NCBI GenBank assembly: GCA_934130935.1
Contig: CAKOYQ010000001.1
Coordinates: forward strand, 95,979-159,978
Direction of reading: 5' to 3'
Length of the DNA stretch: 64,000 nt
DNA from: an uncultured Clostridia bacterium
Lineage (GTDB): Bacteria; Bacillota; Clostridia; TANB77; CAG-508
Shown: positions 650-61,599 of the stretch, in pieces
How the letters are laid out: every line of letters begins with the position of its first letter
How positions within the stretch are numbered: position 1 is the first letter of the stretch
Notes under the pieces: generated by a model
Database searches by the model: none
What the model was told of the DNA's origin: nothing
Seen by the model: the letters and a program-made list of their open reading frames with translations, nothing else
Program-made: the position numbers and the translations under genes

Positions 650-831
650 GAGAGACTTAAATATAAGCTTTGAATGAAATGACGAATGTGCATGGAGAAA
701 TTTTAGAAATTCTTATGTAGTTTTATGGTAAGAGTTCACGATAGTGGAAAGGACCCATAAAGCAAATTAGAATTTCTTAAATTTCGTAATAAGCCGAGGA
801 ATGTAATGAAAAGCTTATATTTAAGTCTCTC
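650..831. mobile_element. core repeat element copy A with 22-bp perfect terminal inverted repeats (MITE-like)
   Basis: The left end gagagacttaaatataagcttt and the right end aaagcttatatttaagtctctc are perfect inverted repeats. The conserved interior (gaatgaaatgacgaatg...gtaatgaaaag) is shared with the copies at 27207, 47078 and 60464. Confidence 0.6.
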
Positions 832-4492: not shown

Positions 4493-5065
4493 TTAATCAA
4501 CATCCTTTCTTAAACCATTTTTTAAAATCTCAGAAATACTACTTGCTATCATTTGTTCATCTAATTCTTTTTCGTGTTCATTCCATTCAAACATTAAAGC
4601 AATATACATTTTGTATATTAAAAATGAAGTAATATCTGCATTTTTATAATCAATGTAACCATTTTCTTTAGCTTTTTCTAGTTTTGTCTTTATATAATTT
4701 TGTATCTGTGTATCAATTAATTCTAAACTATTTATAATAACAGGATTTTTAAGCCATTCTGCTTCTTTTGTTATAATATTTAAAAAATCTTTATCTTTTC
4801 TATATTTTAAAAGACTATAAATAGATTGATTTACAGTTTCAAAAAAATCCAAATTTTTATTATCTATTTCTTCTACAATGTTTTTCATATTAACAATTTC
4901 TTCTTGTATAAAATATTTTAATAAGTCTTCTTTACTAGAAAAATAAGAATAAATAGTTTTTTTAGTTACATTAGCTTCTCTTGCTATTTCATCCATAGAA
5001 ACTTTTTTAAATCCATATTTATGAAATAACAACCTTGCAGATTCAATAACATTTTCTTTCTTCAT
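4493..5065 (-). CDS. TetR/AcrR family transcriptional regulator
   Basis: 190 aa with an N-terminal HTH (LFHKYGFKKVSMDEIAREANVTKKTIYSYF). It overlaps the downstream YhgE gene by a few nt, so the two form an operon. Confidence 0.7.
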   Translation of the reverse strand: MKKENVIESARLLFHKYGFKKVSMDEIAREANVTKKTIYSYFSSKEDLLKYFIQEEIVNMKNIVEEIDNKNLDFFETVNQSIYSLLKYRKDKDFLNIITKEAEWLKNPVIINSLELIDTQIQNYIKTKLEKAKENGYIDYKNADITSFLIYKMYIALMFEWNEHEKELDEQMIASSISEILKNGLRKDVD

Positions 5066-5101
5066 TTAAATTCCCCCCTCTGTATGAATGTTTTTACACT
5101 A

Positions 5102-5128
5102 ATATACTCATCTAGTGATTTAGTATAT
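5102..5128. promoter_or_regulatory. candidate TetR operator palindrome (ATATACT-N13-AGTATAT) upstream of the tetR/yhgE operon
   Basis: Inverted repeat atatactcatctagtgatttagtatat, 35-60 nt upstream of the tetR start codon. Confidence 0.3.
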
Positions 5129-5164
5129 CATATTTTAAGGAAAATGTCAACACATTTGCCACAA

Positions 5165-5193
5165 AAAAACAAAAAGGCCATATTTAGCCTTTT
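5165..5193 (-). terminator. rho-independent terminator downstream of the Ca2+-ATPase gene
   Basis: Minus strand reads aaaaggctaaatatggcctttt followed by a T-rich run, about 25 nt after the stop codon. Confidence 0.55.
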
Positions 5194-5216
5194 CGTTTTT
5201 TGTTGCTATATTTTTT

Positions 5217-8015
5217 TTATTCACCTGCAACTGTATTTACTTTAAATAATTTTAATAATTCAACAATGGCTATTGGTGCTAACACTAATGCCATAACTTC
5301 TATCATGTTTCCAAGTGGTAGAATTGGTATACTAAACACGTGTCTTAAAGCAGGGACAGTCAATATTATAACCATTAAAAATGCTGAAAAAAGAACAGCC
5401 CATATTAATATCGGATTGCCTAATATTCCTGTTTTAAATATTGAATTTTTATTATCACGTATATTAAATACATGAACTAATTCAGAAAATGCTAATACGA
5501 TAAATACCATAGTTTGGCCAATCTCAATTTTAATTTCTTCTTTAGATATATATTCTCCGCCATTTGCTAATACTTCGTCCAAATTATCTATTTCTTCAGC
5601 TGATATTACCTGGTTCTCGTATGATATCATAGTTGGTAATTTATCATCAGGTGTTGCTAATCCTATTAGAAATGCTATAAGTGTAAGTAATCCAATCATT
5701 ACACCTTGATATATAATTCTAAAAGTTCTACCTTTTGTAAATATTCCCTCATCCTTTTTTATTGGTTTTCTATTCATTACATCTTTATTCGCTGGATCAA
5801 ATGCTAATGCCAATGCAGGAAATGTATCTGTTACAAGGTTTATCCATAATATATGAATTGGAAGTAAAACTTGTATCATTGTTACATCAGATATGCCAAA
5901 CCAACTAGCTATTGCTGGAGCAAATAATGTAGCCAATAGTAATACTATAACCTCTCCAACATTACATGAAATTAAAAATTGTATTACTTTTAGAATATTA
6001 TCATATATACGTCTTCCCTCTTCAACTGCTGATACTATTGTTGCAAAATTATCATCTGTTAAAATAACATCTGCAGCTTCTTTTGCAACTTCTGTTCCAA
6101 CTTTTCCCATTGCACATCCAATATCAGATGTTTTCAATGCTGGGCTATCATTTACACCATCACCTGTCATAGCAACTACTTCACCATTTGCTTGCCAAGC
6201 TTTTACTATACGGACTTTATGTTCAGGTGATACTCTTGCATACACTGAATATTTTCTTATATCTTTTGTTAATTGTTCATCAGATATCTTATCTAGCTCC
6301 AGTCCTGTTAGAGCCTCATTCTCATTTTCTAATATTCCTAATTTTTTTGCAATCGCAACTGCTGTAATTTTATGATCTCCTGTAATCATTACAGTTTTGA
6401 TTCCTGCATGTTTACATTTTTCAACAGCTTTTTTAGCCTCTTCTCTTGGCGGATCTATCATCCCAACCATTCCTATAAATGTAAGACCGCTTTCTATTGT
6501 TTTCATTTCTTCTTTTGACGGCTTATGGTCAATTTCTTTATATGCAAATGCCAATACTCTTAGTGCATCTTTTGCCATATCTTCATTGTTTTCTCTTATC
6601 CAATTAGCATATTCATCTATGTTTGTTTTTACTTCACCTTTGAATAAATATGAATTACATATTTTTAATAATTCATCTACTCCACCTTTTGTATAAATTG
6701 TATATTTTCCGTTGTTTTCATTTACAGTTGTCATTAATTTTCTTTCAGAATCAAATGGTATTTCTTCTACTCTTTTGTTTTCTCTATAAATTGATTGTTC
6801 ATAATCTTGTTTTAATGCCATATCTATTAATGCTGTTTCTGTAGGATCTCCTGTAATTTCGCAATTTTCAAGTATCCTAGAATCATTGCATAACATACAG
6901 TTGTATACTAATTTATTAAAATCATCTGTTGCATCAACTTTTTCTAAATCTACTGTTGTATCATTGCAAAATATTTTTTCAACAGTCATTTTGTTTTGTG
7001 TCAATGTTCCTGTTTTATCTGAACATATTACTGTACTGCTACCTAAAGTTTCTACAGCTGGTAATTTTTTTACAATAGCATGCTTCTTTACCATTTTTTG
7101 AACACCTATCGCTAATACTATTGTTGAAACAGCAACTAATCCTTCTGGTATTACAGCTACTGCAAGTGATACAGCTGTCATAAACATTCCAACTACACTC
7201 TTTCCTTGTAATAGACCTATAACAAATATTACTGCACATATTACTAAAGCTGCAATTCCAAGTGTTTTTCCTAAACTGTTTAATCTTGTTTGAAGTGGTG
7301 TTTCTTGTTTTTCTGTATTATTTAACATCCCTGCAATTTTACCAACTTCTGTATTCATACCAGTCTCAACTACAACTGCTTTTCCTCTACCATATGTAAT
7401 TAAACTTGATGAAAACAACATATTTACTCTATCGCCAATTCCAATTTCAGTTCCCTCGATAGCCATTATCTCTTTTTCTACTGGTACAGATTCACCTGTT
7501 AGTGAACTTTCTTGAGCTTTTAAATTAACAGCCTCTACTATTCTTAAATCAGCTGAGACATAATCTCCTGTTTCTATTATTACTATATCTCCAGGTACCA
7601 ACTCTCTCGCAGGAATAATTTGTTCCTTTCCATCTCTTATAACTTTTGCAGCATGTTCACTTAGTTTCTTTAATGCCTCTAATGATTTTTCAGCTTTGCT
7701 TTCTTGTGCTACTCCAATTACTGCATTTAGTAATACTACTATTAATATTATTATTGTATCAGTAAATCCCTCTCCTTGTGCAACTCCTACTACTCCTGAA
7801 ACTATTGCAGCTATTATTAATACTATTATTGAAAAATCTTTAAATTGAGCTATAAATTTTTTAATTAATGATTCTTTTTTCTTTTCTTTTAATTCATTAA
7901 GTCCATATTTTTCTTTATTCTCTGTCAACTTAATATTGCTTAAACCTTTTTCCAAATTTGTTCCTAGCTCTTTTTCAACATCTTTTACTTCTTTGTTAAA
8001 CCACTGCTTTTCCAT
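5217..8015 (-). CDS. calcium-translocating P-type ATPase (P2A/PMCA-like)
   Basis: 932 aa with the CSDKTGTLT phosphorylation motif, the TGDGVNDSPALK hinge, and an arrangement of about 10 TM helices. An N-terminal Cation_ATPase_N-like segment is present. Confidence 0.85.
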   Translation of the reverse strand: MEKQWFNKEVKDVEKELGTNLEKGLSNIKLTENKEKYGLNELKEKKKESLIKKFIAQFKDFSIIVLIIAAIVSGVVGVAQGEGFTDTIIILIVVLLNAVIGVAQESKAEKSLEALKKLSEHAAKVIRDGKEQIIPARELVPGDIVIIETGDYVSADLRIVEAVNLKAQESSLTGESVPVEKEIMAIEGTEIGIGDRVNMLFSSSLITYGRGKAVVVETGMNTEVGKIAGMLNNTEKQETPLQTRLNSLGKTLGIAALVICAVIFVIGLLQGKSVVGMFMTAVSLAVAVIPEGLVAVSTIVLAIGVQKMVKKHAIVKKLPAVETLGSSTVICSDKTGTLTQNKMTVEKIFCNDTTVDLEKVDATDDFNKLVYNCMLCNDSRILENCEITGDPTETALIDMALKQDYEQSIYRENKRVEEIPFDSERKLMTTVNENNGKYTIYTKGGVDELLKICNSYLFKGEVKTNIDEYANWIRENNEDMAKDALRVLAFAYKEIDHKPSKEEMKTIESGLTFIGMVGMIDPPREEAKKAVEKCKHAGIKTVMITGDHKITAVAIAKKLGILENENEALTGLELDKISDEQLTKDIRKYSVYARVSPEHKVRIVKAWQANGEVVAMTGDGVNDSPALKTSDIGCAMGKVGTEVAKEAADVILTDDNFATIVSAVEEGRRIYDNILKVIQFLISCNVGEVIVLLLATLFAPAIASWFGISDVTMIQVLLPIHILWINLVTDTFPALALAFDPANKDVMNRKPIKKDEGIFTKGRTFRIIYQGVMIGLLTLIAFLIGLATPDDKLPTMISYENQVISAEEIDNLDEVLANGGEYISKEEIKIEIGQTMVFIVLAFSELVHVFNIRDNKNSIFKTGILGNPILIWAVLFSAFLMVIILTVPALRHVFSIPILPLGNMIEVMALVLAPIAIVELLKLFKVNTVAGE

Positions 8016-8461: not shown

Positions 8462-8536
8462 GGCCCGTTGGTCAAGCGGTTAAGACGCCACCCTCTCAAG
8501 GTGGAATCATGAGTTCGATTCTCGTACGGGTCACCA
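8462..8536 (+). tRNA. tRNA-Glu (anticodon CUC as read from the loop ctCTCaa; encoded CCA)
   Basis: The acceptor stem ggcccgt/acgggtc and the D-arm gtcaagcggttaagac match the bacterial tRNA-Glu identity. The anticodon stem is ccacc/ggtgg, the loop is c-t-CTC-a-a, and the T-loop is ttcgatt. Confidence 0.85.
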
Positions 8537-20220: not shown

Positions 20221-20251
20221 GTCTTTTTGCTAATCTTTTTATTTTTTTTGA

Positions 20252-20315
20252 GGGACATTTGGGGTCGGTTCCGTTTTTGACCTTGGGCAATTTGGGGTCG
20301 GTTCTATTTTTGCCC
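20252..20315 (+). repeat. tandem pair of 31-bp GGGCAA-hairpin repeat units (first unit degenerate)
   Basis: gggacatttggggtcggttccgtttttgacc + tt + gggcaatttggggtcggttctatttttgccc + tttt. The pair lies between the nrdD stop and the hrcA promoter. The same unit recurs at 25350, 27106-27182, 27409-27485, 52116, 60406 and 60657. Confidence 0.85.
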
Positions 20316-20362
20316 TTTTGTTTGACCTATAAAAAGAACCAGTTTTTCTGGTTCTTTCAATC

Positions 20363-25335: not shown

Positions 25336-25349
25336 TTATATCCTTTCTA

Positions 25350-25413
25350 GGGCAATTCGGGGTCGGTTCCATTTTTGCCCTTGGGACATTTGGGGTCGGT
25401 TCCGTTTTTGCCC
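25350..25413 (+). repeat. tandem pair of 31-bp GGGCAA-hairpin repeat units
   Basis: gggcaattcggggtcggttccatttttgccc + tt + gggacatttggggtcggttccgtttttgccc + ttttt. The pair fills the intergenic gap between the kinase-like gene stop and the RNHCP start. Confidence 0.85.
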
Positions 25414-25420
25414 TTTTTAA

Positions 25421-27028
25421 TTATCCCTTAAAATCTCCTCCACCAAGAAATTCTTTAAGCAAAGAATTTGATGGAACTAATTCTTTTGGTATTGGTTCGA
25501 AATATCGCAATATCTCAAGTAATCTTTGTGCCTCAGCATATTCTGGTTCTGAGTTTTTGATTTGTTTTAATAATGGTTCAGCTTCAGCTTTAAGTACTCC
25601 TAATTCATAAATCAATGATGTATTAAAAATACTATCAGCATCTTCTTGGAATGGAAATATATTTCTTTCTTCCCCTCTATTTACATTATTCCACGTCTGA
25701 ATTGTTTTTTGAGGTGAATATCCTCTAAACTGATTATCTCTAACAATTCTCCTTATTAGTCTTGTATCTGTTGTTGAAATTCTATTAAAAGCATCCATAT
25801 TAAGTACTGTTAACGCACTTATATACACTTTGTATTTTTGGTCATGTGGTATTTTTTCGGTCAATTTATCATTTAAGCAATGAATTCCTTCAATTACAAG
25901 TATATCGTCTTTCTCCATTTTTATTTTATTTCCATTATATTTCTTAGTTCCTTCATGAAAATCAAATTCTGGTGTTTCAACTTCCTCCCCATTTAACAAT
26001 GCTAATAAATGCTTATTAAATAGTTCTGTATCAATAGCGTCAATACTTTCAAAGTCATATTCTCCTTTTTTATTTAGAGGTGTCTGTGATCTTTCTACAA
26101 AGTAATTATCTACAGAAATTGTTACAGGTCTCAATCCATTTATTTTAAGTTGAATACCTAATCTTTGTGCAAATGTTGTCTTTCCTGATGACGATGGCCC
26201 AGCTATTAAAATTATTTTTACACCTTTTCTTTCTGCTATTTTATCTGCTATTTGAGAAATTTTTTTCTCATGTAAAGCTTCTGACAATAGTATCATATAT
26301 TTTATTTGATTTTCTTTTACAATTCTGTTTAATCTATATACTGTTCCTACATTTAAAACTCTGTATATCGTCTCATATTCTTGTAAAGCCCATAATAATT
26401 TTTTTGTTTCTTTAAATTCTGGAATTATATTAACATTACTTGAAGTTGGATATCTTAACAAAAAACCATCACTATATTTTTGCAAGTCAAATAATTTTGT
26501 AACTCCTGTATGTGTTGCAATTATCTCATAGAAGTAATTAAAATAATCATCACAGTAATACATGTTAATATCTTCTTTTTCTTTTAAATCAAATTGTAAT
26601 CTTCCTTTTGGTGTATTTGTTTCTTTGTAAAATACTTCTGCTTCTTGTCTAGTCATTGTCCTTTTTTCTATCTTTAAATCTTTTTTAATTATTTCTTGCA
26701 TTTTCTCTTTGACTTTTTCTAGCATATCATCAGTTATTTCCATATTTTCTATATTACAATACATTGCATGTGATAATTGGTAATCTACAATTATATGTGC
26801 CTCTGGATATATATGCCAAAATGCTTTTCCCATTATAAATGTCAAAGTTCTTCTATATATTTTCATTCCTTCTTTTGAATTAATTTTAATTAGTTCTATG
26901 TCTCCATTCTTTGCAACTATGTCATCTAAATTTTTATATTCATTATTAACTTTAGCTCCTACAACTGGATATTCACTCTTTTCTATTTGTTCTTTTAATA
27001 ATTCTGATATTCTTATATTTTCTTCCAT
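25421..27028 (-). CDS. uridine kinase/phosphoribulokinase-family nucleoside kinase with N-terminal TGS-like domain
   Basis: 535 aa. A P-loop (IAGPSSSGKTTFAQRL) sits in the C-terminal half, and the N-terminal ~200 aa resemble the ThrRS/GTPase TGS fold. This architecture is conserved in Clostridia. Confidence 0.6.
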   Translation of the reverse strand: MEENIRISELLKEQIEKSEYPVVGAKVNNEYKNLDDIVAKNGDIELIKINSKEGMKIYRRTLTFIMGKAFWHIYPEAHIIVDYQLSHAMYCNIENMEITDDMLEKVKEKMQEIIKKDLKIEKRTMTRQEAEVFYKETNTPKGRLQFDLKEKEDINMYYCDDYFNYFYEIIATHTGVTKLFDLQKYSDGFLLRYPTSSNVNIIPEFKETKKLLWALQEYETIYRVLNVGTVYRLNRIVKENQIKYMILLSEALHEKKISQIADKIAERKGVKIILIAGPSSSGKTTFAQRLGIQLKINGLRPVTISVDNYFVERSQTPLNKKGEYDFESIDAIDTELFNKHLLALLNGEEVETPEFDFHEGTKKYNGNKIKMEKDDILVIEGIHCLNDKLTEKIPHDQKYKVYISALTVLNMDAFNRISTTDTRLIRRIVRDNQFRGYSPQKTIQTWNNVNRGEERNIFPFQEDADSIFNTSLIYELGVLKAEAEPLLKQIKNSEPEYAEAQRLLEILRYFEPIPKELVPSNSLLKEFLGGGDFKG

Positions 27029-27105: not shown

Positions 27106-27485
27106 GGGTAATTTGGGGGACATTTGGGGTCGGTTCCGTTTTTGCCCAATGGGGTAATTCGGGGTCGGTTCCATTTTTGCCCTTTTTCTCTTAAATATGA
27201 TAATTATTAATATTAAATATAAACTTTAAATGAAATGACGAATATGATTGGAGAAACTTTAGAAATTCTACGAAATTTTATGGAAAGAGTTCACGAGAGT
27301 GGAAGGGTGCCATAAAATAAGTTAGAATTTCTTAAGTTTCGTAATGAATCGAGGGAATGTAATGCAAAGTTTATATTTAATATTAATAAATTAGTTATGT
27401 CTCGAAAAGGGCAAAAGTGGAACCGACCCCGAATTACCCCATTGGGCAAAAACGGAACCGACCCCAAATGTCCCCCAAATTACCC
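27106..27485. mobile_element. composite palindromic element: 77-bp inverted arms (two GGGCAA-hairpin units each) flanking a ~180-bp copy of the conserved core element (MITE-like)
   Basis: The left arm 27106-27182 and the right arm 27409-27485 are reverse complements with a single mismatch. The core at 27207-27386 is homologous to the cores at 650-831, 47078-47259 and 60464-60630. Confidence 0.6.
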
Positions 27486-47077: not shown

Positions 47078-47259
47078 CTCTTAGAATACTATAAACTTTG
47101 AATGAAATTCCGAATGTGCATGTAGAACCTTTAGAAATTTTTATGTAATTTTATGGAAAGAGTTCACGAGAGTGGAAGGGTGCCATAAAATAAATTAAAA
47201 TTTCTTAAGGTTCGAAATAAACCGAGGAATGAAATGAAAAGTTTATAGTATTCTAAGAG
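47078..47259. mobile_element. core repeat element copy C with 22-bp terminal inverted repeats (MITE-like), between Alg13-like gene stop and ftsE promoter
   Basis: The left end ctcttagaatactataaacttt and the right end aaagtttatagtattctaagag are perfect inverted repeats. The core is homologous to the copies at 650, 27207 and 60464. Confidence 0.6.
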
Positions 47260-47265
47260 TATATA

Positions 47266-47745
47266 TTAATTATTATCTATAAAATCCTGTACAATGCTTA
47301 TAATTTTTCCTGTATTTTGAATATATTTCTTAGGTTCAAATTTTTCAATTCTCTTTAACGCATCTCCTAATTGAGAAACATCTGTAACTCCTATAATATA
47401 TCCCATTTCGTCAAAAGATTTTACAATATCAAGTTGATGGTTATTTACATGTTCATTATACTCTTTTAATCTAGGAACAGCAATCACCTTTTTGCCTTGT
47501 TCTATTGAAGTTATAATTGAACCAACCCCACCATGTGTTATAATCAAGTCTGCTTTATTTATTAATTTTTTCATTTCTTCCATTGGAATTTGATTATATA
47601 TTGTCATATCTTTACTTGAAAACTTTGTATAACCTTCTTGAACAATTACACTATCTTTTATGTTTCCATTCTCTATGTTTCTCTGTATTTCTTCTAGTAA
47701 TCTATGGAAACTATTATTTTGTGTTCCTAACAATACTAATACCAT
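47266..47745 (-). CDS. Alg13-like glycosyltransferase subunit (GT28 C-terminal domain; PssE/Cps14G-like)
   Basis: 159 aa. ADLIITHGGVGSIITSIEQGKKVIAVPR matches the UDP-sugar binding half of split MurG/Alg13-type transferases. Confidence 0.65.
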   Translation of the reverse strand: MVLVLLGTQNNSFHRLLEEIQRNIENGNIKDSVIVQEGYTKFSSKDMTIYNQIPMEEMKKLINKADLIITHGGVGSIITSIEQGKKVIAVPRLKEYNEHVNNHQLDIVKSFDEMGYIIGVTDVSQLGDALKRIEKFEPKKYIQNTGKIISIVQDFIDNN

Positions 47746-52090: not shown

Positions 52091-52115
52091 TTTTTCTCTT
52101 GTTCCCCCTCTAAAT

Positions 52116-52146
52116 GGGCAATTTGGGGTCGGTTCCATTTTTGCCC
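52116..52146 (+). repeat. solo 31-bp GGGCAA-hairpin repeat unit
   Basis: gggcaatttggggtcggttccatttttgccc followed by ttttttatttt. It lies between the ftsH stop and the downstream gene's RBS. Confidence 0.85.
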
Positions 52147-57247: not shown

Positions 57248-57368
57248 TTTTTTAACCTCATTTCTTTATGCTCTCTTTATTATTTACTTTTTGCCTTTAT
57301 TTTACACTAAATATATTATTTTTACAAGACTTTTTATAAGAAAAATTTAGATATCGTTACTAGCAAAT

Positions 57369-57658
57369 GGATTAAGCATTACATGTTTTTTTACAACCTA
57401 AGGTAGGCCCAAAGGAGGAATTGCATAAAATAAATGAAAGATTTTGTGTATCTAATCTTAACACTAGAAGTTCTTATAGAAGCAAATGAGGAATGTTCAC
57501 GGGCAAACTTGTAAGTTTGAGCTTGAGTGAAAGAGGCTCATTTGATTCAATTAGAACTTCTGTGGTAAGATTGGCTTATCCAAAATCTGTAATGGTTTTT
57601 ATGCAATTCCTCCTTTGGGCCCACCTTAGGTTGTAAAAAAACATGTAACACTTAATCC
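57369..57658. mobile_element. 290-bp palindromic element with 62-bp near-perfect terminal inverted repeats (MITE-like or structured RNA)
   Basis: The left TIR (57369-57430) and the right TIR (57597-57658) differ at 3 positions. Nested internal dyads include CAAACTTgtAAGTTTG. Each TIR carries AAAGGAGGA. Confidence 0.55.
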
Positions 57659-57671
57659 CATTAAATAGTAA

Positions 57672-60389
57672 TTAAATATTTTCCTTTACCATTTTTTCAA
57701 GAGAATCGATTAAGCTCTGTAGTTTTTTTAAATCTGAGCCCATCATTTCCCAATCATTTCTATCATTAGACTCTGTCAAATTTTTATTTGCATCTATAAT
57801 AGCTTGAATCATCCCATCCACATCTTCAGTATTTGTAACATTAATATTTACAGCTGATTGTGATAATAGATTAGTAATTGCTTCACTTAATGTATCTCCT
57901 ATTGCAACTTTCGTTCCAGAAGCAACAATTACCTTTTTTAACGTAGTTGGTTGATTAGGTTCATTTGTCATAGTTTGATAAATTGTTTCAACATATAAAA
58001 CGCTATTATTAAGTGGAATTATTTTCATCTCTTTTGAAATTTTGCTTCCTGTAACATTAATAGAAGTAAGTTCTGCTGAAATTGTCTCATCCTGTTCTAT
58101 TTGATTATCTAACTGAATTGGTCCCAAAATATTACTATCTGATGGATATTTATAAATTTTTAACTTACATTCAGTTCCATCACATGTTCCCACTAGATAT
58201 GAAGTAATATTTGATTTTCCATTTTGAGTATACATTTGGACTAGTCCAAACTCGGCATCCTCATTATTTGGAGCTTTAATCATAGCATAATATGGTTGTA
58301 ATGTTGATACTTTTGATTTTGAAGACGTAGTACCATATTTAGCTAATGCCCATATATCACTATTTCTATATAACACATCTTCTTTTACATTATGATATAC
58401 CATAAGCATTTCAGATTGAACCTTATACAAAAATTCTGAATACTTGAATTGTGATTTTATTCCTTGTGGAATTTCTTTTTCTGTATAATCTGGAAAAACA
58501 GTTGGATATAATTTTAAATAAGCCATTATTACTGGGTCATTTCTATCTGTTATATAAAAATCCATATCACCATTATAAGCATTTACAATTACTTTTACTG
58601 AATTTCTTATATAATTAATATTTCGTTTAGCTCCATCATATTCAATTTCTGTAAATGTCGAATATGGATATTTATCAGAAACAGTATATGCATCTAATAC
58701 CCAATAAATTTGACCGTTATCTATAACTGTATATGGATTTTCATCATATATCAAATTTGGTAATATCGTTCTTGCTCTTTCTATTATATTTCTATTTGTC
58801 AATATCTTGCTTTCTTTTGAAACAGTTGTTGACATTGCAAGTTTTATATCTTTATTTTTTATTGCCAATATTAGTCTATCAAAAAATCCAACCTGTATCC
58901 CTGAATTACCATTATAATTATATGTATGCTCAACTCCAGAATTATCAGTATAGTCATATTCTGTCTTGTTCTTTGTATTTGTAACAGCAACACTATTTGT
59001 TTCAACACCATAGTATATCCTTGGTTCTTTTATTTCATATATATTATCTACTCCACTTATATCTTTTTGTAAATATTGAATATTTCCATTTTCTTCAACA
59101 TGTGTTGCAGAAACAACAATTTGTCCAATTCCATGTGTATATTCATATGTTTTATTATTATAAGATATTGAATTATTCTCAATCTCTCTTGGAGTCACAT
59201 ACACTAATTTATCATTACCTTTTATGTTATACTTTGAAAGAGTTGCATCTCTAAATGTATAATATCCAGTTTCAGTTTGGGTATCTTTTAAACTTTGAAC
59301 AACTAAATCTTTGTCCACTATTACTATATTATCAATAACATCAGAATTTTGTTGAATTTCTTCTTCTTTTATTGTTCCAGAATAGTCAACACTTGTTTCT
59401 TCTACATCTATATCATATGCATCCTGAGTAGATTTAATATTTTCAGATATATATTTTCTTTCTTTATCAAATTTGTTAGATTTTACAAAAATCAAATTAT
59501 ATCCTACCATAACTATAAATAATGCTACTAAATATATAGGAATAGCTAATAATGGATATATAATCTTTTTATTTTGCTTCTTTATAAAATAATTTACAGC
59601 TATTATTACAGAAATTGTAATTACTATTGATAGCAATAAATATCCCCATAACTGAATTGTTGATTCAACAATTCCAGCACCTGTTAATTCTGTTCCATTA
59701 CTTAAAGTTAAAAACTTCCCTACAACTATATTTTGTGTATTTAACATGTTATATAACCCTATTGCTATGGCTAGCATAATAGTGTTTCTTAATAATTTTT
59801 TTATAAGTTTACTTTCACGTAATAAATCTCTATCAACAGCTTTAAAATATACATTAAACACTATTATATAATATCCAACCATATATATGCTAACACCCAT
59901 TATTAGTCTAATAAAATGCCATAGCAATGACTCTATCAATGGTTTTATAAACATATAATATGATATATCAAGATTAAATATTATATCTGTTTTTCCAAAT
60001 GATGCATTACTTACAAACAATAGTACTTTGTCTAGTAAATTGTTTGATATAATTACACTTGCTATTGCTGAAATTATTAAAACTATCGATTTGTTAGGGA
60101 GTTTTGGTACTTCAAGTTTTTCTTGTTCAAAAAAAGGCTTTAGTCCTTTTTTTATTCCAATATTCGTAAAATATAAGATTATACACAAAAATACAAATGA
60201 AATTCCCATTATTGAATATTTATATTTTATTTCTGTAAAAAACTTTTCTACATATTGCTCTCCAATTTCAACATATTCTAAATATTGTCCTCTTAATGAT
60301 ATATATGTTGCAAATATATATATTGCAATAAATGCAATTACAATTATTGCTCTTACTTTTTTGCTAATCTTTACTTTATTTTTTTCCAT
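57672..60389 (-). CDS. UPF0182 family large membrane protein
   Basis: 905 aa with about 7 N-terminal TM helices and a large extracytoplasmic domain. The length and topology are typical of UPF0182. Confidence 0.6.
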   Translation of the reverse strand: MEKNKVKISKKVRAIIVIAFIAIYIFATYISLRGQYLEYVEIGEQYVEKFFTEIKYKYSIMGISFVFLCIILYFTNIGIKKGLKPFFEQEKLEVPKLPNKSIVLIISAIASVIISNNLLDKVLLFVSNASFGKTDIIFNLDISYYMFIKPLIESLLWHFIRLIMGVSIYMVGYYIIVFNVYFKAVDRDLLRESKLIKKLLRNTIMLAIAIGLYNMLNTQNIVVGKFLTLSNGTELTGAGIVESTIQLWGYLLLSIVITISVIIAVNYFIKKQNKKIIYPLLAIPIYLVALFIVMVGYNLIFVKSNKFDKERKYISENIKSTQDAYDIDVEETSVDYSGTIKEEEIQQNSDVIDNIVIVDKDLVVQSLKDTQTETGYYTFRDATLSKYNIKGNDKLVYVTPREIENNSISYNNKTYEYTHGIGQIVVSATHVEENGNIQYLQKDISGVDNIYEIKEPRIYYGVETNSVAVTNTKNKTEYDYTDNSGVEHTYNYNGNSGIQVGFFDRLILAIKNKDIKLAMSTTVSKESKILTNRNIIERARTILPNLIYDENPYTVIDNGQIYWVLDAYTVSDKYPYSTFTEIEYDGAKRNINYIRNSVKVIVNAYNGDMDFYITDRNDPVIMAYLKLYPTVFPDYTEKEIPQGIKSQFKYSEFLYKVQSEMLMVYHNVKEDVLYRNSDIWALAKYGTTSSKSKVSTLQPYYAMIKAPNNEDAEFGLVQMYTQNGKSNITSYLVGTCDGTECKLKIYKYPSDSNILGPIQLDNQIEQDETISAELTSINVTGSKISKEMKIIPLNNSVLYVETIYQTMTNEPNQPTTLKKVIVASGTKVAIGDTLSEAITNLLSQSAVNINVTNTEDVDGMIQAIIDANKNLTESNDRNDWEMMGSDLKKLQSLIDSLEKMVKENI

Positions 60390-60405
60390 GCATTTTCTCC
60401 TTTTA

Positions 60406-60687
60406 GGGCAAATTGGGGTCGGTTCTTTTTTTGCCCTCTTAATAATTTATTAGAATTACCAATATAAATATAAATTTTAAATGAAATGACGAATGTAATT
60501 GGAGAAACTTTAGAAATTGTATGAAATTTCATGGAAATAGTTCATGAGAATGAAAGGGTGCCATAAAATAAATTACAATTTCTTAAGTTTCGTAATGCGC
60601 CGAGGAGTGTAATGAAAAATTTATATTTATATTAGTAATTAGTATTAAAAATTAAAGGGCAAAAAAAGAACCGACCCCAATTTGCCC
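60406..60687. mobile_element. composite palindromic element: perfect 31-bp inverted GGGCAA-hairpin arms flanking core repeat copy D
   Basis: The arm at 60406-60436 is the reverse complement of the arm at 60657-60687. The core at 60464-60630 has aaaattt/aaatttt subterminal repeats. The element fills the ftsY-to-UPF0182 intergenic region. Confidence 0.65.
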
Positions 60688-60693
60688 TTTTTT

Positions 60694-61599
60694 CTAAATT
60701 ATAGCTTTAGCAAAATCTTTTGAGTTAAATATTTCCATATCATCTATCTGCTCTCCAACTCCGATAAACTTTACTGGTATTTTATTTTCCTCTACGATTC
60801 CAATAACAGCTCCGCCTTTAGCAGTTCCATCTAATTTTGTAAGAACAATTCCTGTAATATCCGCTTGTTCCTTAAATGCTTTTACTTGTGAAATTGCATT
60901 TTGGCCTGTTCCTGCATCTATAACAAGTAGAACTTCTTTTGAAGCTTCTGGCATTTCCTTATTTATAACTTTTTGAATTTTATTTAACTCGTCCATTAAA
61001 TATTTTTTATTATGCAATCTTCCAGCAGTATCACATATTAATATATCTGCTCCAATTTCTCTTGTTTTTGTAATTGCATCATATACTACAGAAGCAGGAT
61101 CTATTCCTTCTTCTCTTTTAACTATTTCTGCACCTGCTCTTTTTGCCCAAATTTCTAGCTGTTCTACAGCTGCTGCCCTAAATGTATCTGCAGCAGCAAC
61201 TACCACTTTTTTTCCATCTCTTGCTAGCCTCGCAGCCATCTTTCCTATTGATGTTGTTTTTCCAACGCCATTTACTCCTATTACTAATATTACAGATGGT
61301 TTTGTTTCAAGCTTTAATGAATTATCTGATATTTCTAATATATTTTCTATTTCTTCTCTTAAAGCTTCTTTTACTTGTTCTTCATCTTCTATTTTCTCTT
61401 TTTTTATTTTATCTCTTAAATTAGATATTATTTTTGTTGATGTTTCTATCCCTATATCTGACATTATTAATGCTTCTTCTAATTCTTCGAGAAAGTCTTC
61501 ATCAACCTTTCTAAAATTGCTAAACACATTATTTATTTTCTCATTTAATGACTCTTTTGTTTTATTTAATCCTTGTTTTAATTTATCAAAAAATCCCAT
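60694..61599 (-). CDS. ftsY: signal recognition particle receptor FtsY
   Basis: 301 aa with the NG domain (GVNGVGKTTSIGKMA, DTAGR, TKLDG). The acidic A-domain is short. Confidence 0.9.
   Translation of the reverse strand: MGFFDKLKQGLNKTKESLNEKINNVFSNFRKVDEDFLEELEEALIMSDIGIETSTKIISNLRDKIKKEKIEDEEQVKEALREEIENILEISDNSLKLETKPSVILVIGVNGVGKTTSIGKMAARLARDGKKVVVAAADTFRAAAVEQLEIWAKRAGAEIVKREEGIDPASVVYDAITKTREIGADILICDTAGRLHNKKYLMDELNKIQKVINKEMPEASKEVLLVIDAGTGQNAISQVKAFKEQADITGIVLTKLDGTAKGGAVIGIVEENKIPVKFIGVGEQIDDMEIFNSKDFAKAII

Follow-up and report, generated by a model that had tools for sequence, protein, structure and literature searches.

We found that the element filling the space between ftsY and the neighbouring UPF0182 gene is probably a non-coding mobile insertion, in which an interior derived from a MITE is held between inverted REP units of a RAYT system and was later flipped in place. 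The element is a variant of known bacterial repeat elements and not a new kind of system. What it combines is REP/RAYT-type repeats in gut Clostridia, a MITE remnant lying between inverted REPs, and natural, recurrent inversion.

Anatomy of the element

The window, the whole 64-kb stretch of DNA analysed here, has a GC content of ~28% and carries almost every gene on the minus strand. The features of the element and its relatives in the window are listed in Table 1. The original prediction had described two perfect 31-nt arms enclosing a repeated core, and this description was confirmed in all its parts. The 31-mer GGGCAAATTGGGGTCGGTTCTTTTTTTGCCC at 60406-60436 returns as its exact reverse complement at 60657-60687, and the full perfect inverted repeat extends to 33 nt per arm, with 100% complementarity and 218 nt between the arms. 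With up to three mismatches allowed, the 31-mer has four matches in the window, compared with none in 100 dinucleotide-preserving shuffles. Core copy D lies between the arms as claimed, and matches the profile of the window's core copies with an nhmmer E-value of 6.8e-48. The left arm ends 5 nt from the ribosome binding site (RBS) of the UPF0182 gene (GGAG, 60397-60400), and on the other side six T, read as AAAAAA in the mRNA, lie between the right arm and the TAG that ends ftsY (60694-60696). The element is therefore placed exactly at the operon junction, with the end of ftsY on one side and the RBS of the UPF0182 gene on the other. There it may serve as a terminator, RNA stabiliser or insulator, as the original prediction proposed. 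The nested design that had been noted at 27106-27485 is also the same, with two units per arm there and one per arm at the ftsY-UPF0182 junction.

Read from end to end, the composite consists of a REP arm, an AT-rich sub-arm, the core, a second AT-rich sub-arm, and an inverted REP arm. The two sub-terminal arms form a 52-nt inverted repeat with 79% complementarity, so that both they and the 33-nt perfect arms supply the terminal inverted repeats that characterise a MITE. The size of the element is also that of a MITE (below ~600 bp and non-coding). The only open reading frames (ORFs) listed as overlapping it encode 53 aa (60371-60532) and 141 aa, the latter starting with TTG and extending into the UPF0182 gene in antisense direction.

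Table 1. Coordinates of the composite element, its parts and neighbours, and related repeat copies in the window
Feature	Coordinates	Strand	Basis or remark
Whole composite element	60405..60688 (284 bp)	.	Outer limit of the inverted repeat, by alignment
UPF0182-proximal arm, one REP-type hairpin unit AGGGCAAATTGGGGTCGGTTCTTTTTTTGCCCT	60405..60437	+	Perfect 33-nt inverted repeat; GGGGTCGGTTC family
ftsY-proximal arm, inverted REP-type unit	60656..60688	-	In ftsY mRNA, hairpin and then UUUAAUUUUU
Invertible interior	60438..60655	.	Between the arms
Core copy D, homologous to the centre of the ~255-bp MITE family	60459..60633	+	nhmmer
Left AT-rich sub-terminal arm, MITE terminal-repeat remnant minus the outermost ~7 nt	60427..60478	+	
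Right AT-rich sub-terminal arm	60616..60667	-	
ftsY, upstream gene	60694..61599	-	FtsY; Pfam SRP54 GTPase and SRP54_N
UPF0182 gene, downstream	57672..60389	-	PF03699, E 4e-171; RBS GGAG at 60397-60400
Core copy A, classic, without REP arms	654..830	+	
Core copy B, inside composite B	27213..27380	+	
Sister composite B, core copy B with two REP units in each arm	27106..27485	.	
Core copy C, without REP arms	47082..47257	+	Orthologous site empty in L024
Tandem REP doublet without core	25349..25422	+	Missing at the orthologous site in sister-species locus L074
Tandem REP doublet without core	20251..20324	+	
Single REP unit	52115..52146	+	

We evaluated the folding of the element and the expression signals within it. 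A 306-nt region containing the element is predicted to fold into a single long hairpin, whichever strand is considered (-114 to -116 kcal/mol, z ~ -15 to -16). On the minus strand, the ftsY-proximal arm alone is predicted to form only a modest hairpin, with a stem of 8-10 bp and a structured 17-nt loop, followed by UUUAAUUUUU (-17.9 kcal/mol). A consensus scan of the element called no terminator. The promoter scan gave two weak matches (9/12) on the plus strand, fewer than in shuffled sequences, and, whichever way the interior is read, no match on the gene strand. At gathering thresholds, Rfam matched only a tRNA in the whole window, and a permissive scan of 60300-60800 returned only chance matches far below threshold. 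A known RNA family was ruled out by these Rfam searches.

Repeat families of the core and the arms

The core is ~170 nt long and occurs four times in the window, each time on the plus strand. A scan with one genome per species found it in at least 99 stretches from ~11 uncultured gut Clostridia MAGs. The core-bearing stretches that are syntenic with the window are 80-86% identical to it, indicating that the MAGs belong to sister species. There were 122 nhmmer matches to the core profile, 103 of which are nearly complete; all lay in intergenic sequence, clear of long ORFs, at a density of ~1 copy per 16 kb. Alignment with the flanks showed that most copies are ~255-bp elements with the consensus ends GTTACNGGTTAATGGTTT and its complement (GTTAC...). 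These classic copies are surrounded by an 8-bp AT-rich target duplication, with a mean of 6.9/8 matching positions against 4.69 +/- 0.25 (maximum 5.6) for shuffled partners. As in a MITE family, the many dispersed copies are present in some genomes and absent from others: the window lacks the cores of L052, L060 and L074, and L024 lacks core copy C, giving filled and empty sites from species to species.

In ~2 Mb of fetched loci, we found no autonomous IS with the classic terminal repeats and no transposase-bearing copy. The same loci contained seven solo classic ends, and those inspected were deletion derivatives. BLAST searches of a classic family member against a plasmid collection, and of this element against a phage collection, gave no match.

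Between species with a gene identity of 80-86%, the core is conserved to >90%. Its central stem has compensatory changes in 21 of 42 consensus pairs, and it folds better on the plus strand (-27.2 vs -20.3 kcal/mol, with G-U against A-C pairs at 203 to 25). We take the covariation as a sign of constraint on hairpin formation, not as evidence of an RNA gene. With respect to neighbouring genes, the core takes both orientations (46 to 24). In the sub-arms there was no convincing strand-specific RNA signature: wobble-type mismatches numbered 66 on the plus strand vs 99 on the minus strand, and 76% of the mismatches were non-wobble.

Each arm is one copy of a ~32-nt GC-rich unit, GGGCAATTTGGGGTCGGTTCCATTTTTGCCC. 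The GGGGTCGGTTC motif of this unit has 11 exact copies in the window against 0.8 expected, each of them intergenic. A metagenome scan recovered 306 units on 120 contigs. Single units made up 93 clusters, followed by direct tandem doublets with a period of ~33 nt (81 clusters, the commonest multi-unit form), triplets (11 clusters), and short inverted pairs (9 clusters). Another 13 convergent pairs, including the window's two, had their units 249-259 nt apart, which is the spacing of the core composites. A core between units on both sides was confirmed in 10 metagenome cases, and the bracketing was always (+ ... -) and never divergent (- ... +). Away from cores there are ~109 de-duplicated unit clusters, 9 of which lie inside long ORFs. 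Those free clusters that lie between co-directional genes are biased in orientation (55 to 13, or 81%), with the T-tailed hairpin on the antisense strand.

The units have the properties of REPs, being short GC-rich imperfect palindromes that are intergenic and over-represented in a genome of 28% GC. They have a short stem of 6-8 bp and a conserved loop of 17-19 nt. The GTAG-type 5' tetranucleotide of proteobacterial REPs is absent, and the units start with GGGC, GGGA or GGGG; the GTAG head may be specific to the proteobacterial systems. The terminal motifs form a loose series from GTTACAGGTTAATGG via GGACAGGTACATTTTT to GGGGTCGGTTCCATTTTT.

By looking for genes bracketed by inverted units, we found a candidate RAYT at L232:7578-8360. 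No RAYT gene was found within the window, and the RAYT evidence comes from fetched related contigs. The candidate is a protein of 260 aa that matches Pfam Y1_Tnp with 44.4 bits, above the gathering score of 23, and has the HUH (HVH) and YxxxNP (YVHRNP) motifs. Among NCBIfam models, that for the REP-associated tyrosine transposase matches it best, with 51.5 bits and below the 80-bit cut-off. In the fold search, its AlphaFold model (pLDDT 82.5) matched best to 4ER8, the structure of the E. coli RAYT in complex with a REP hairpin (E 3e-6, TM 0.69), and the transposases of IS608 and ISDra2 rank lower. Sequence searches of the PDB with the RAYT and with a 25-sequence profile gave no matches; the fold search alone matched. 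A homologue of the protein is called RayT by one source.

REP/RAYT systems are defined by co-variation of the flanks, single copy number, vertical inheritance, and abundant flanking 16-mers (PMC5581495). Here, the RAYT gene is single-copy per lineage in the ~2 Mb of fetched DNA, and its position is syntenic, from a nuoE-like gene to yunB, in four further lineages with 63-77% identity. The unit variant of the gene's own lineage flanks it in four lineages. The flanks carry GGGGTCGGTTC in L232 and L270, GGACCGGGTAC and GGGGACGGTTC in L264 and L267, and GGGACAGGTCC and GGGGACGGTTC in L273-275; in L232, a further gene lies between the RAYT and the doublet upstream of it. The sister variants at the RAYT flanks are also the end motifs of the sister-species composite cores L009, L014, L041, L056 and L075. 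Furthermore, 16-mers of the L232 RAYT flank recur 4-5 times in the window, where a random 16-mer is expected ~3e-5 times, and are abundant in the sense of PMC5581495. Since variant co-variation, single copy, vertical inheritance and abundant flank 16-mers are REP/RAYT features, we read the arms as REPs with a RAYT. On this sequence evidence, the units belong to a REP/RAYT system with a single-copy, vertically inherited Y1 (HUH) transposase.

Insertion and inversion at the ftsY-UPF0182 junction

The question of whether the element is an insertion next to ftsY, an essential gene, had been left to a comparison of orthologous junctions, and these proved polymorphic between lineages, being either empty or occupied by other units. 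The ftsY-UPF0182 spacer measures 304 nt both in the window and in the 26 contigs of the same species, all of which carry the element and have flanks >99% identical to the window. In the sister lineages compared, FtsY is 95-98% identical, and L248-255 carry P0029 (98% protein, ~90% nucleotide). The junctions of L112 and L115-117 have 11-13 nt from stop to ATG and contain the RBS only. Two tandem units of the variant GGACCGACCCC occupy the junction in L108-111, and one unit of a different family (TTTACCAGTGGGGACACCC...) that in L113. In L114 and L248-255 we found three or four TTTACCAGTGGGGACACCC-family units, nested inverted and without a core.

Since the element is present in the same-species contigs and the sister junctions are empty or hold other units, it reads as a lineage-specific insertion of repeated mobile DNA into a formerly tight junction. 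Before the insertion, the two genes were presumably translationally coupled. The junction is colonised repeatedly by hairpin units. An extra gene beside ftsY (338 aa in L113, 347 aa in L248-255) was considered as a transposase and dropped, having a weak PIN_4 match only.

We then compared the orientation of the interior among the same-species contigs, with its limits set by the GCCC/GGGC boundaries (60437-60656, 220 nt). The interior is inverted in 5 of the 26 contigs (L102, L105, L258, L260 and, in part, L263), and the other 21 are window-like. Identity to the reverse complement is 218-219/220 in L102, L105 and L258 and 207/220 in L260, and L263 is a partial read. Arms and flanks are unaltered in the inverted contigs. 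In this respect the locus resembles an inverton, a segment between inverted repeats that occurs in both orientations. In-place inversion of a MITE interior is known for Correia elements (PMC10969869).

The inverted contigs fall on at least three flank haplotypes, each with a close window-like relative. Their interiors are identical to or at most 1 nt from window-like interiors, and do not form a group of their own. Taken together, the haplotypes and the shared interiors point to several independent flips, or to ongoing switching. An assembly artefact was considered and rejected, since the 33-nt exact repeat is shorter than the assembler k (K77 and k141, within the range of 77-141 used for the assemblies) and five independent samples agree.

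In four or five contigs the assembly breaks off within the element. Three loci (L159, L240 and L260) join ftsY and the element, represented in L159 by one REP arm only, to other genes, and the interiors of L240 and L260 are mosaic. These joins reflect either real ectopic recombination or chimeric assembly. For the orientation of composite B in other strains, an exact look-up of the RNase Y protein returned no records. The four metagenome contigs that reach composite B all break inside it.

Origin of the composite and relation to known repeat systems

The REP-flanked cores form sequence clades separate from the 68 classic copies. Core copy D clusters with 10 others, all of which are unit-flanked, and core copy B clusters with L179, L235, L237 and sister-species copies having homologous GC-rich ends. 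REP-flanked cores were found at at least 10 distinct loci, and they share one unit-to-arm junction, in which the outermost ~7 nt of the classic terminal repeat are missing. Around 13 composites including this one, the target duplication is absent, with 4.38/8 matching positions against 4.38 +/- 0.26 in the control. The core of this element is MITE-derived by homology, yet without a target duplication this copy is not behaving as a DDE-type MITE. Single-strand transposition by HUH/Y1 enzymes is not expected to produce a target duplication. From the absence of the duplication and this expectation, we infer that the composite consists of two inverted REPs with a MITE-derived spacer, and was spread by the RAYT.

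We propose the following course of events. The interior would descend from the genus-wide ~255-bp MITE, capped at each end by one inverted REP-type unit. Such REP-capped cores would spread as single-stranded hairpins via the RAYT without leaving a target duplication, and one of them would have inserted downstream of the ftsY stop codon, just ahead of the UPF0182 RBS, where the two genes had once been tightly coupled. The two perfect 33-bp arms could then act as recombination or template-switching substrates, through which the interior would have flipped several times. In a read-through ftsY transcript, the element would form a ~280-nt hairpin with a perfect 33-bp base. By analogy with known elements, this hairpin would likely be an RNase III or terminator-like barrier, leaving the genes uncoupled and the RBS free.

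The main rival is growth in place, because the number of units per arm differs between strains at one locus (L128 vs L232; L214 vs L233 differ likewise). In this scenario, a MITE at the junction or next to a REP gained units on each side, the arms were homogenised by gene conversion within the palindrome, and the composite never moved as a unit. The variation in unit number indicates that arms can also grow in place, which weakens the case for movement as a whole. The junction is also a hotspot of hairpin units without a core in L108-111, L113, L114 and L248-255, and the arms are 100% identical when the inner sub-arms are only 79% complementary. The absence of target duplications around the composites fits growth in place as well. 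However, the clades formed by REP-flanked cores at 10 or more loci, the common junction lacking the same ~7 nt, and an orientation that is always (+ ... -) and never (- ... +) speak against independent accretion. We therefore regard growth in place as unlikely, and favour the spread of REP-capped cores by the RAYT.

It is quite improbable, in our view, that the element is an ordinary cut-and-paste MITE with GC-rich hairpin ends, moved by the same DDE transposase as the GTTAC-ended family, with a coincidental link to REPs and the RAYT. The homology of its core to a family with clear 8-bp target duplications would agree with such an origin, as would the loose gradation of the end motifs from GTTACAGGTTAATGG to GGGGTCGGTTCCATTTTT. 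However, the 13 tested composites lack the duplication, the units occur mostly alone or in tandem without a core, and units flank the RAYT in four lineages. Moreover, the ~2 Mb contained no autonomous IS with such ends.

We give a similarly low probability to a programmed inverton, in which a dedicated invertase acts at the arms to flip a promoter or terminator and the UPF0182 gene phase-varies. Both orientations do occur in natural populations on several haplotype backgrounds, the contigs ending inside the element are expected for mixed orientations within a sample, and the element lies directly upstream of a gene. However, neither reading of the interior offers a sigma-70-like promoter on the gene strand, no recombinase gene adjoins the element, and the gene-adjoining arms are unaltered by inversion. 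The design also recurs at many unrelated loci, which makes it a trait of the repeat family. Correia elements likewise invert in place, and a dedicated switch function is not established for them (PMC10969869).

A bolder reading, which we consider equally doubtful, is that REP arms together with the RAYT or host recombination make captured cassettes into reversible switches. It would imply phase-variable uncoupling of an operon with an essential gene, and invertible modules genome-wide in low-GC gut Clostridia. If this is true, a flip of the interior would change the transcribed strand of the structured core, and with it how transcripts are terminated or processed between the two genes.

Least probable of all is a small RNA gene family, with the core as a structured RNA and the arms as bidirectional terminators: the strong conservation of the core relative to genes, its compensatory pairs, its better plus-strand fold and its excess of G-U over A-C pairs would suit it, but there is no Rfam match and no called promoter, the target duplications, insertion polymorphism and copy density are transposon traits, orientation to neighbouring genes is mixed, the core lies in both orientations between the same arms, and the sub-arm mismatches are mostly not wobble pairs.

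The sources for REPIN/RAYT systems are reportedly Bertels and Rainey 2011, Nunvar 2010, and Ton-Hoang 2012. In E. coli, BIME-1 (RIP) elements consist of inverted REPs around a conserved ~35-nt central motif with an IHF site, and lie between operon genes. The element described here resembles them in that inverted REPs bracket a conserved centre between genes, but its centre is a 220-nt transposon remnant with a long stem.

We compared it further with the REPIN/RAYT features of Pseudomonas and E. coli as summarised in PMC5581495. Like REPINs, it pairs two inverted short GC-rich palindromic repeats into one long hairpin, has hundreds of intergenic copies without target duplication, and is linked to a Y1/HUH transposase that is inherited vertically in single copy and has its own repeat on its flanks (PMC5581495). 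The spacer differs, being a few tens of bases in a REPIN and 220 nt of MITE-derived sequence here. A classical REPIN is an inverted doublet, whereas the free form here is mostly a direct tandem (81 vs 9 short inverted clusters). Unlike proteobacterial REPs, the units lack the GTAG head and combine the 6-8-bp stem with a 17-19-nt loop. The host also differs from the REPIN hosts Pseudomonas and E. coli, being an uncultured Clostridia lineage of the gut with low GC.

CREE/NEMIS elements of Neisseria have 26-bp terminal repeats, a TA duplication and known promoters, and RNase III cleaves their transcripts where the repeats pair (PMC10969869). Similar to CREE, the element is a small palindromic non-coding element in operons whose interior inverts in place (PMC10969869), but it takes its ends from a distinct REP family, and we detected no promoter in it. 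Because the paired ends of Correia elements are cut by RNase III, we suppose a similar cleavage here, and RNase III cutting is a plausible fate of this element's transcripts. By this analogy, a read-through transcript would probably be cleaved or stalled at the 33-bp duplex, with the RBS single-stranded 5 nt downstream. Modular composites of nested small repeats or internal repeats are also known from the pneumococcal BOX/RUP/SPRITE clusters and the BrickBuilt MITE of P. gingivalis (PMC10969869, PMC4596501). The BOX/RUP/SPRITE clusters are ad hoc and BrickBuilt is a MITE with an internal minisatellite, whereas the composite here is a symmetric, heritable subfamily linked to a RAYT.

These findings have consequences for the reading of gut metagenomes. 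Surveys for invertons, which look for inverted repeats with mixed orientations, would flag this locus, where the signal comes from a repeat family with no obvious promoter switch. The element is also a source of assembly breaks, and several contigs end inside it or join it to other loci.

The REP family described here is abundant and linked to a RAYT in a gut Clostridia lineage that is uncultured and low in GC (28%); one sister MAG has a 1.55-Mb chromosome (OV788638.1). The RAYT group found in Clostridia had previously shown only a weak association with repeats (PMC5581495). Here inverted REPs have enclosed a MITE remnant, and the whole has apparently spread as an oversized REPIN, which extends the range of cargo of REP/RAYT systems. 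Finally, the locus is a natural experiment, in which a stop-to-RBS junction of 11-13 nt was split, and it illustrates how operons accommodate a perfect-ended hairpin of 284 nt.

Potential pairing between REP-type units

We found that the motif GGGGUCGGUUCC of the GC-rich hairpin unit, seen on the plus strand of the window at 25340-25430 and in other tandem doublets, is self-complementary once G-U pairs are counted. Therefore, on the plus strand, the motif of one unit in a tandem doublet can pair with that of the other, forming a 12-bp helix. This motif-motif helix is not possible on the complementary strand, and the z score of the doublet fold that contains it is only -1.5. In most free units, the helix-capable strand is antisense to the neighbouring genes. 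We also identified a unit motif with one mismatch (GGGGTTGGTTC) inside an ORF, which is probably either a chance match or a decayed unit.

Features outside the composite elements, on the window and on fetched contigs (L-numbers) of the same or sister species
Feature	Location	Strand	Remark
One-mismatch unit motif	window 47519-47529	minus	inside ORF 47266-47745
tRNA gene	window 8462-8533	plus	Rfam 61.4 bits
Extra gene	L113:1264-2280; L248-L255:226-1269	minus (L113)	338-347 aa
Short-match core copies	L006:1660-1781, L010, L025, L029, L034, L055, L061, L068, L073, L084
Short classic-MITE derivatives	L011:6355-6460, L056:7549-7620

A second unit family and gene content around ftsY

A second family of hairpin units (TTTACCAGTGGGGACACCCATTAATGGTAAA), unrelated to the first, was observed in sister species at the L113, L114 and L248-L255 junctions. 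Its units are arranged as nested inverted clusters with no core. At L096:6396-6779, a core copy is flanked by units of this family, and the MAG CAKPGU carries both the TTTACCAGTGGGGACACCCATTAATGGTAAA and the GGACCGGGTAC families.

In some sister lineages (L113, L248-L255), the extra gene lies between the phosphoglucomutase gene and ftsY on the opposite strand. Its sole match is PIN_4, a weak one (E 4e-4), and the window and other lineages do not have this gene. A classic core copy (L049:5171-5337) separates the 3' end of the UPF0182 gene from a FemAB-like gene in the MGYG-HGUT-00421 lineage; the corresponding stretch of the window, 57248-57671, is a 424-nt spacer with zero core matches. The tRNA gene is among the few plus-strand features of the window, which otherwise is almost all minus-strand coding.

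Contigs joining ftsY to other loci

On three contigs (L240, L260, L159), ftsY and the element are fused to unrelated genes. The partners are Impact_N and Spo0A, DUF951 and an EngB-like gene, and another locus. On L240 and L260 the joint lies downstream of ftsY and the element, and in both contigs the interior is a mosaic of copy D, the core of the element, and another composite copy. The L159 joint (5040-5420) holds ftsY and a single REP arm only, not the full element. Either the repeat copies have truly recombined ectopically, or the contigs are chimeric assemblies.

Short relatives of the core and the MITE

About 10 copies, mostly from one MAG (CAKPDR), align to positions 31-151 of the core profile only, at ~80 bits apiece. 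They look like a sub-family that is shorter and whose outer parts differ. The two short derivatives of the classic MITE consist of its terminal repeat and sub-arm with the core missing, and look like internal deletions. The spacer directly upstream of the RAYT transposase gene (L232:7480-7500) holds AAAACCATTAATTAG, which is similar to the terminal repeat of the classic MITE (AAACCATTAACCTGTAAC) and could be what is left of one.
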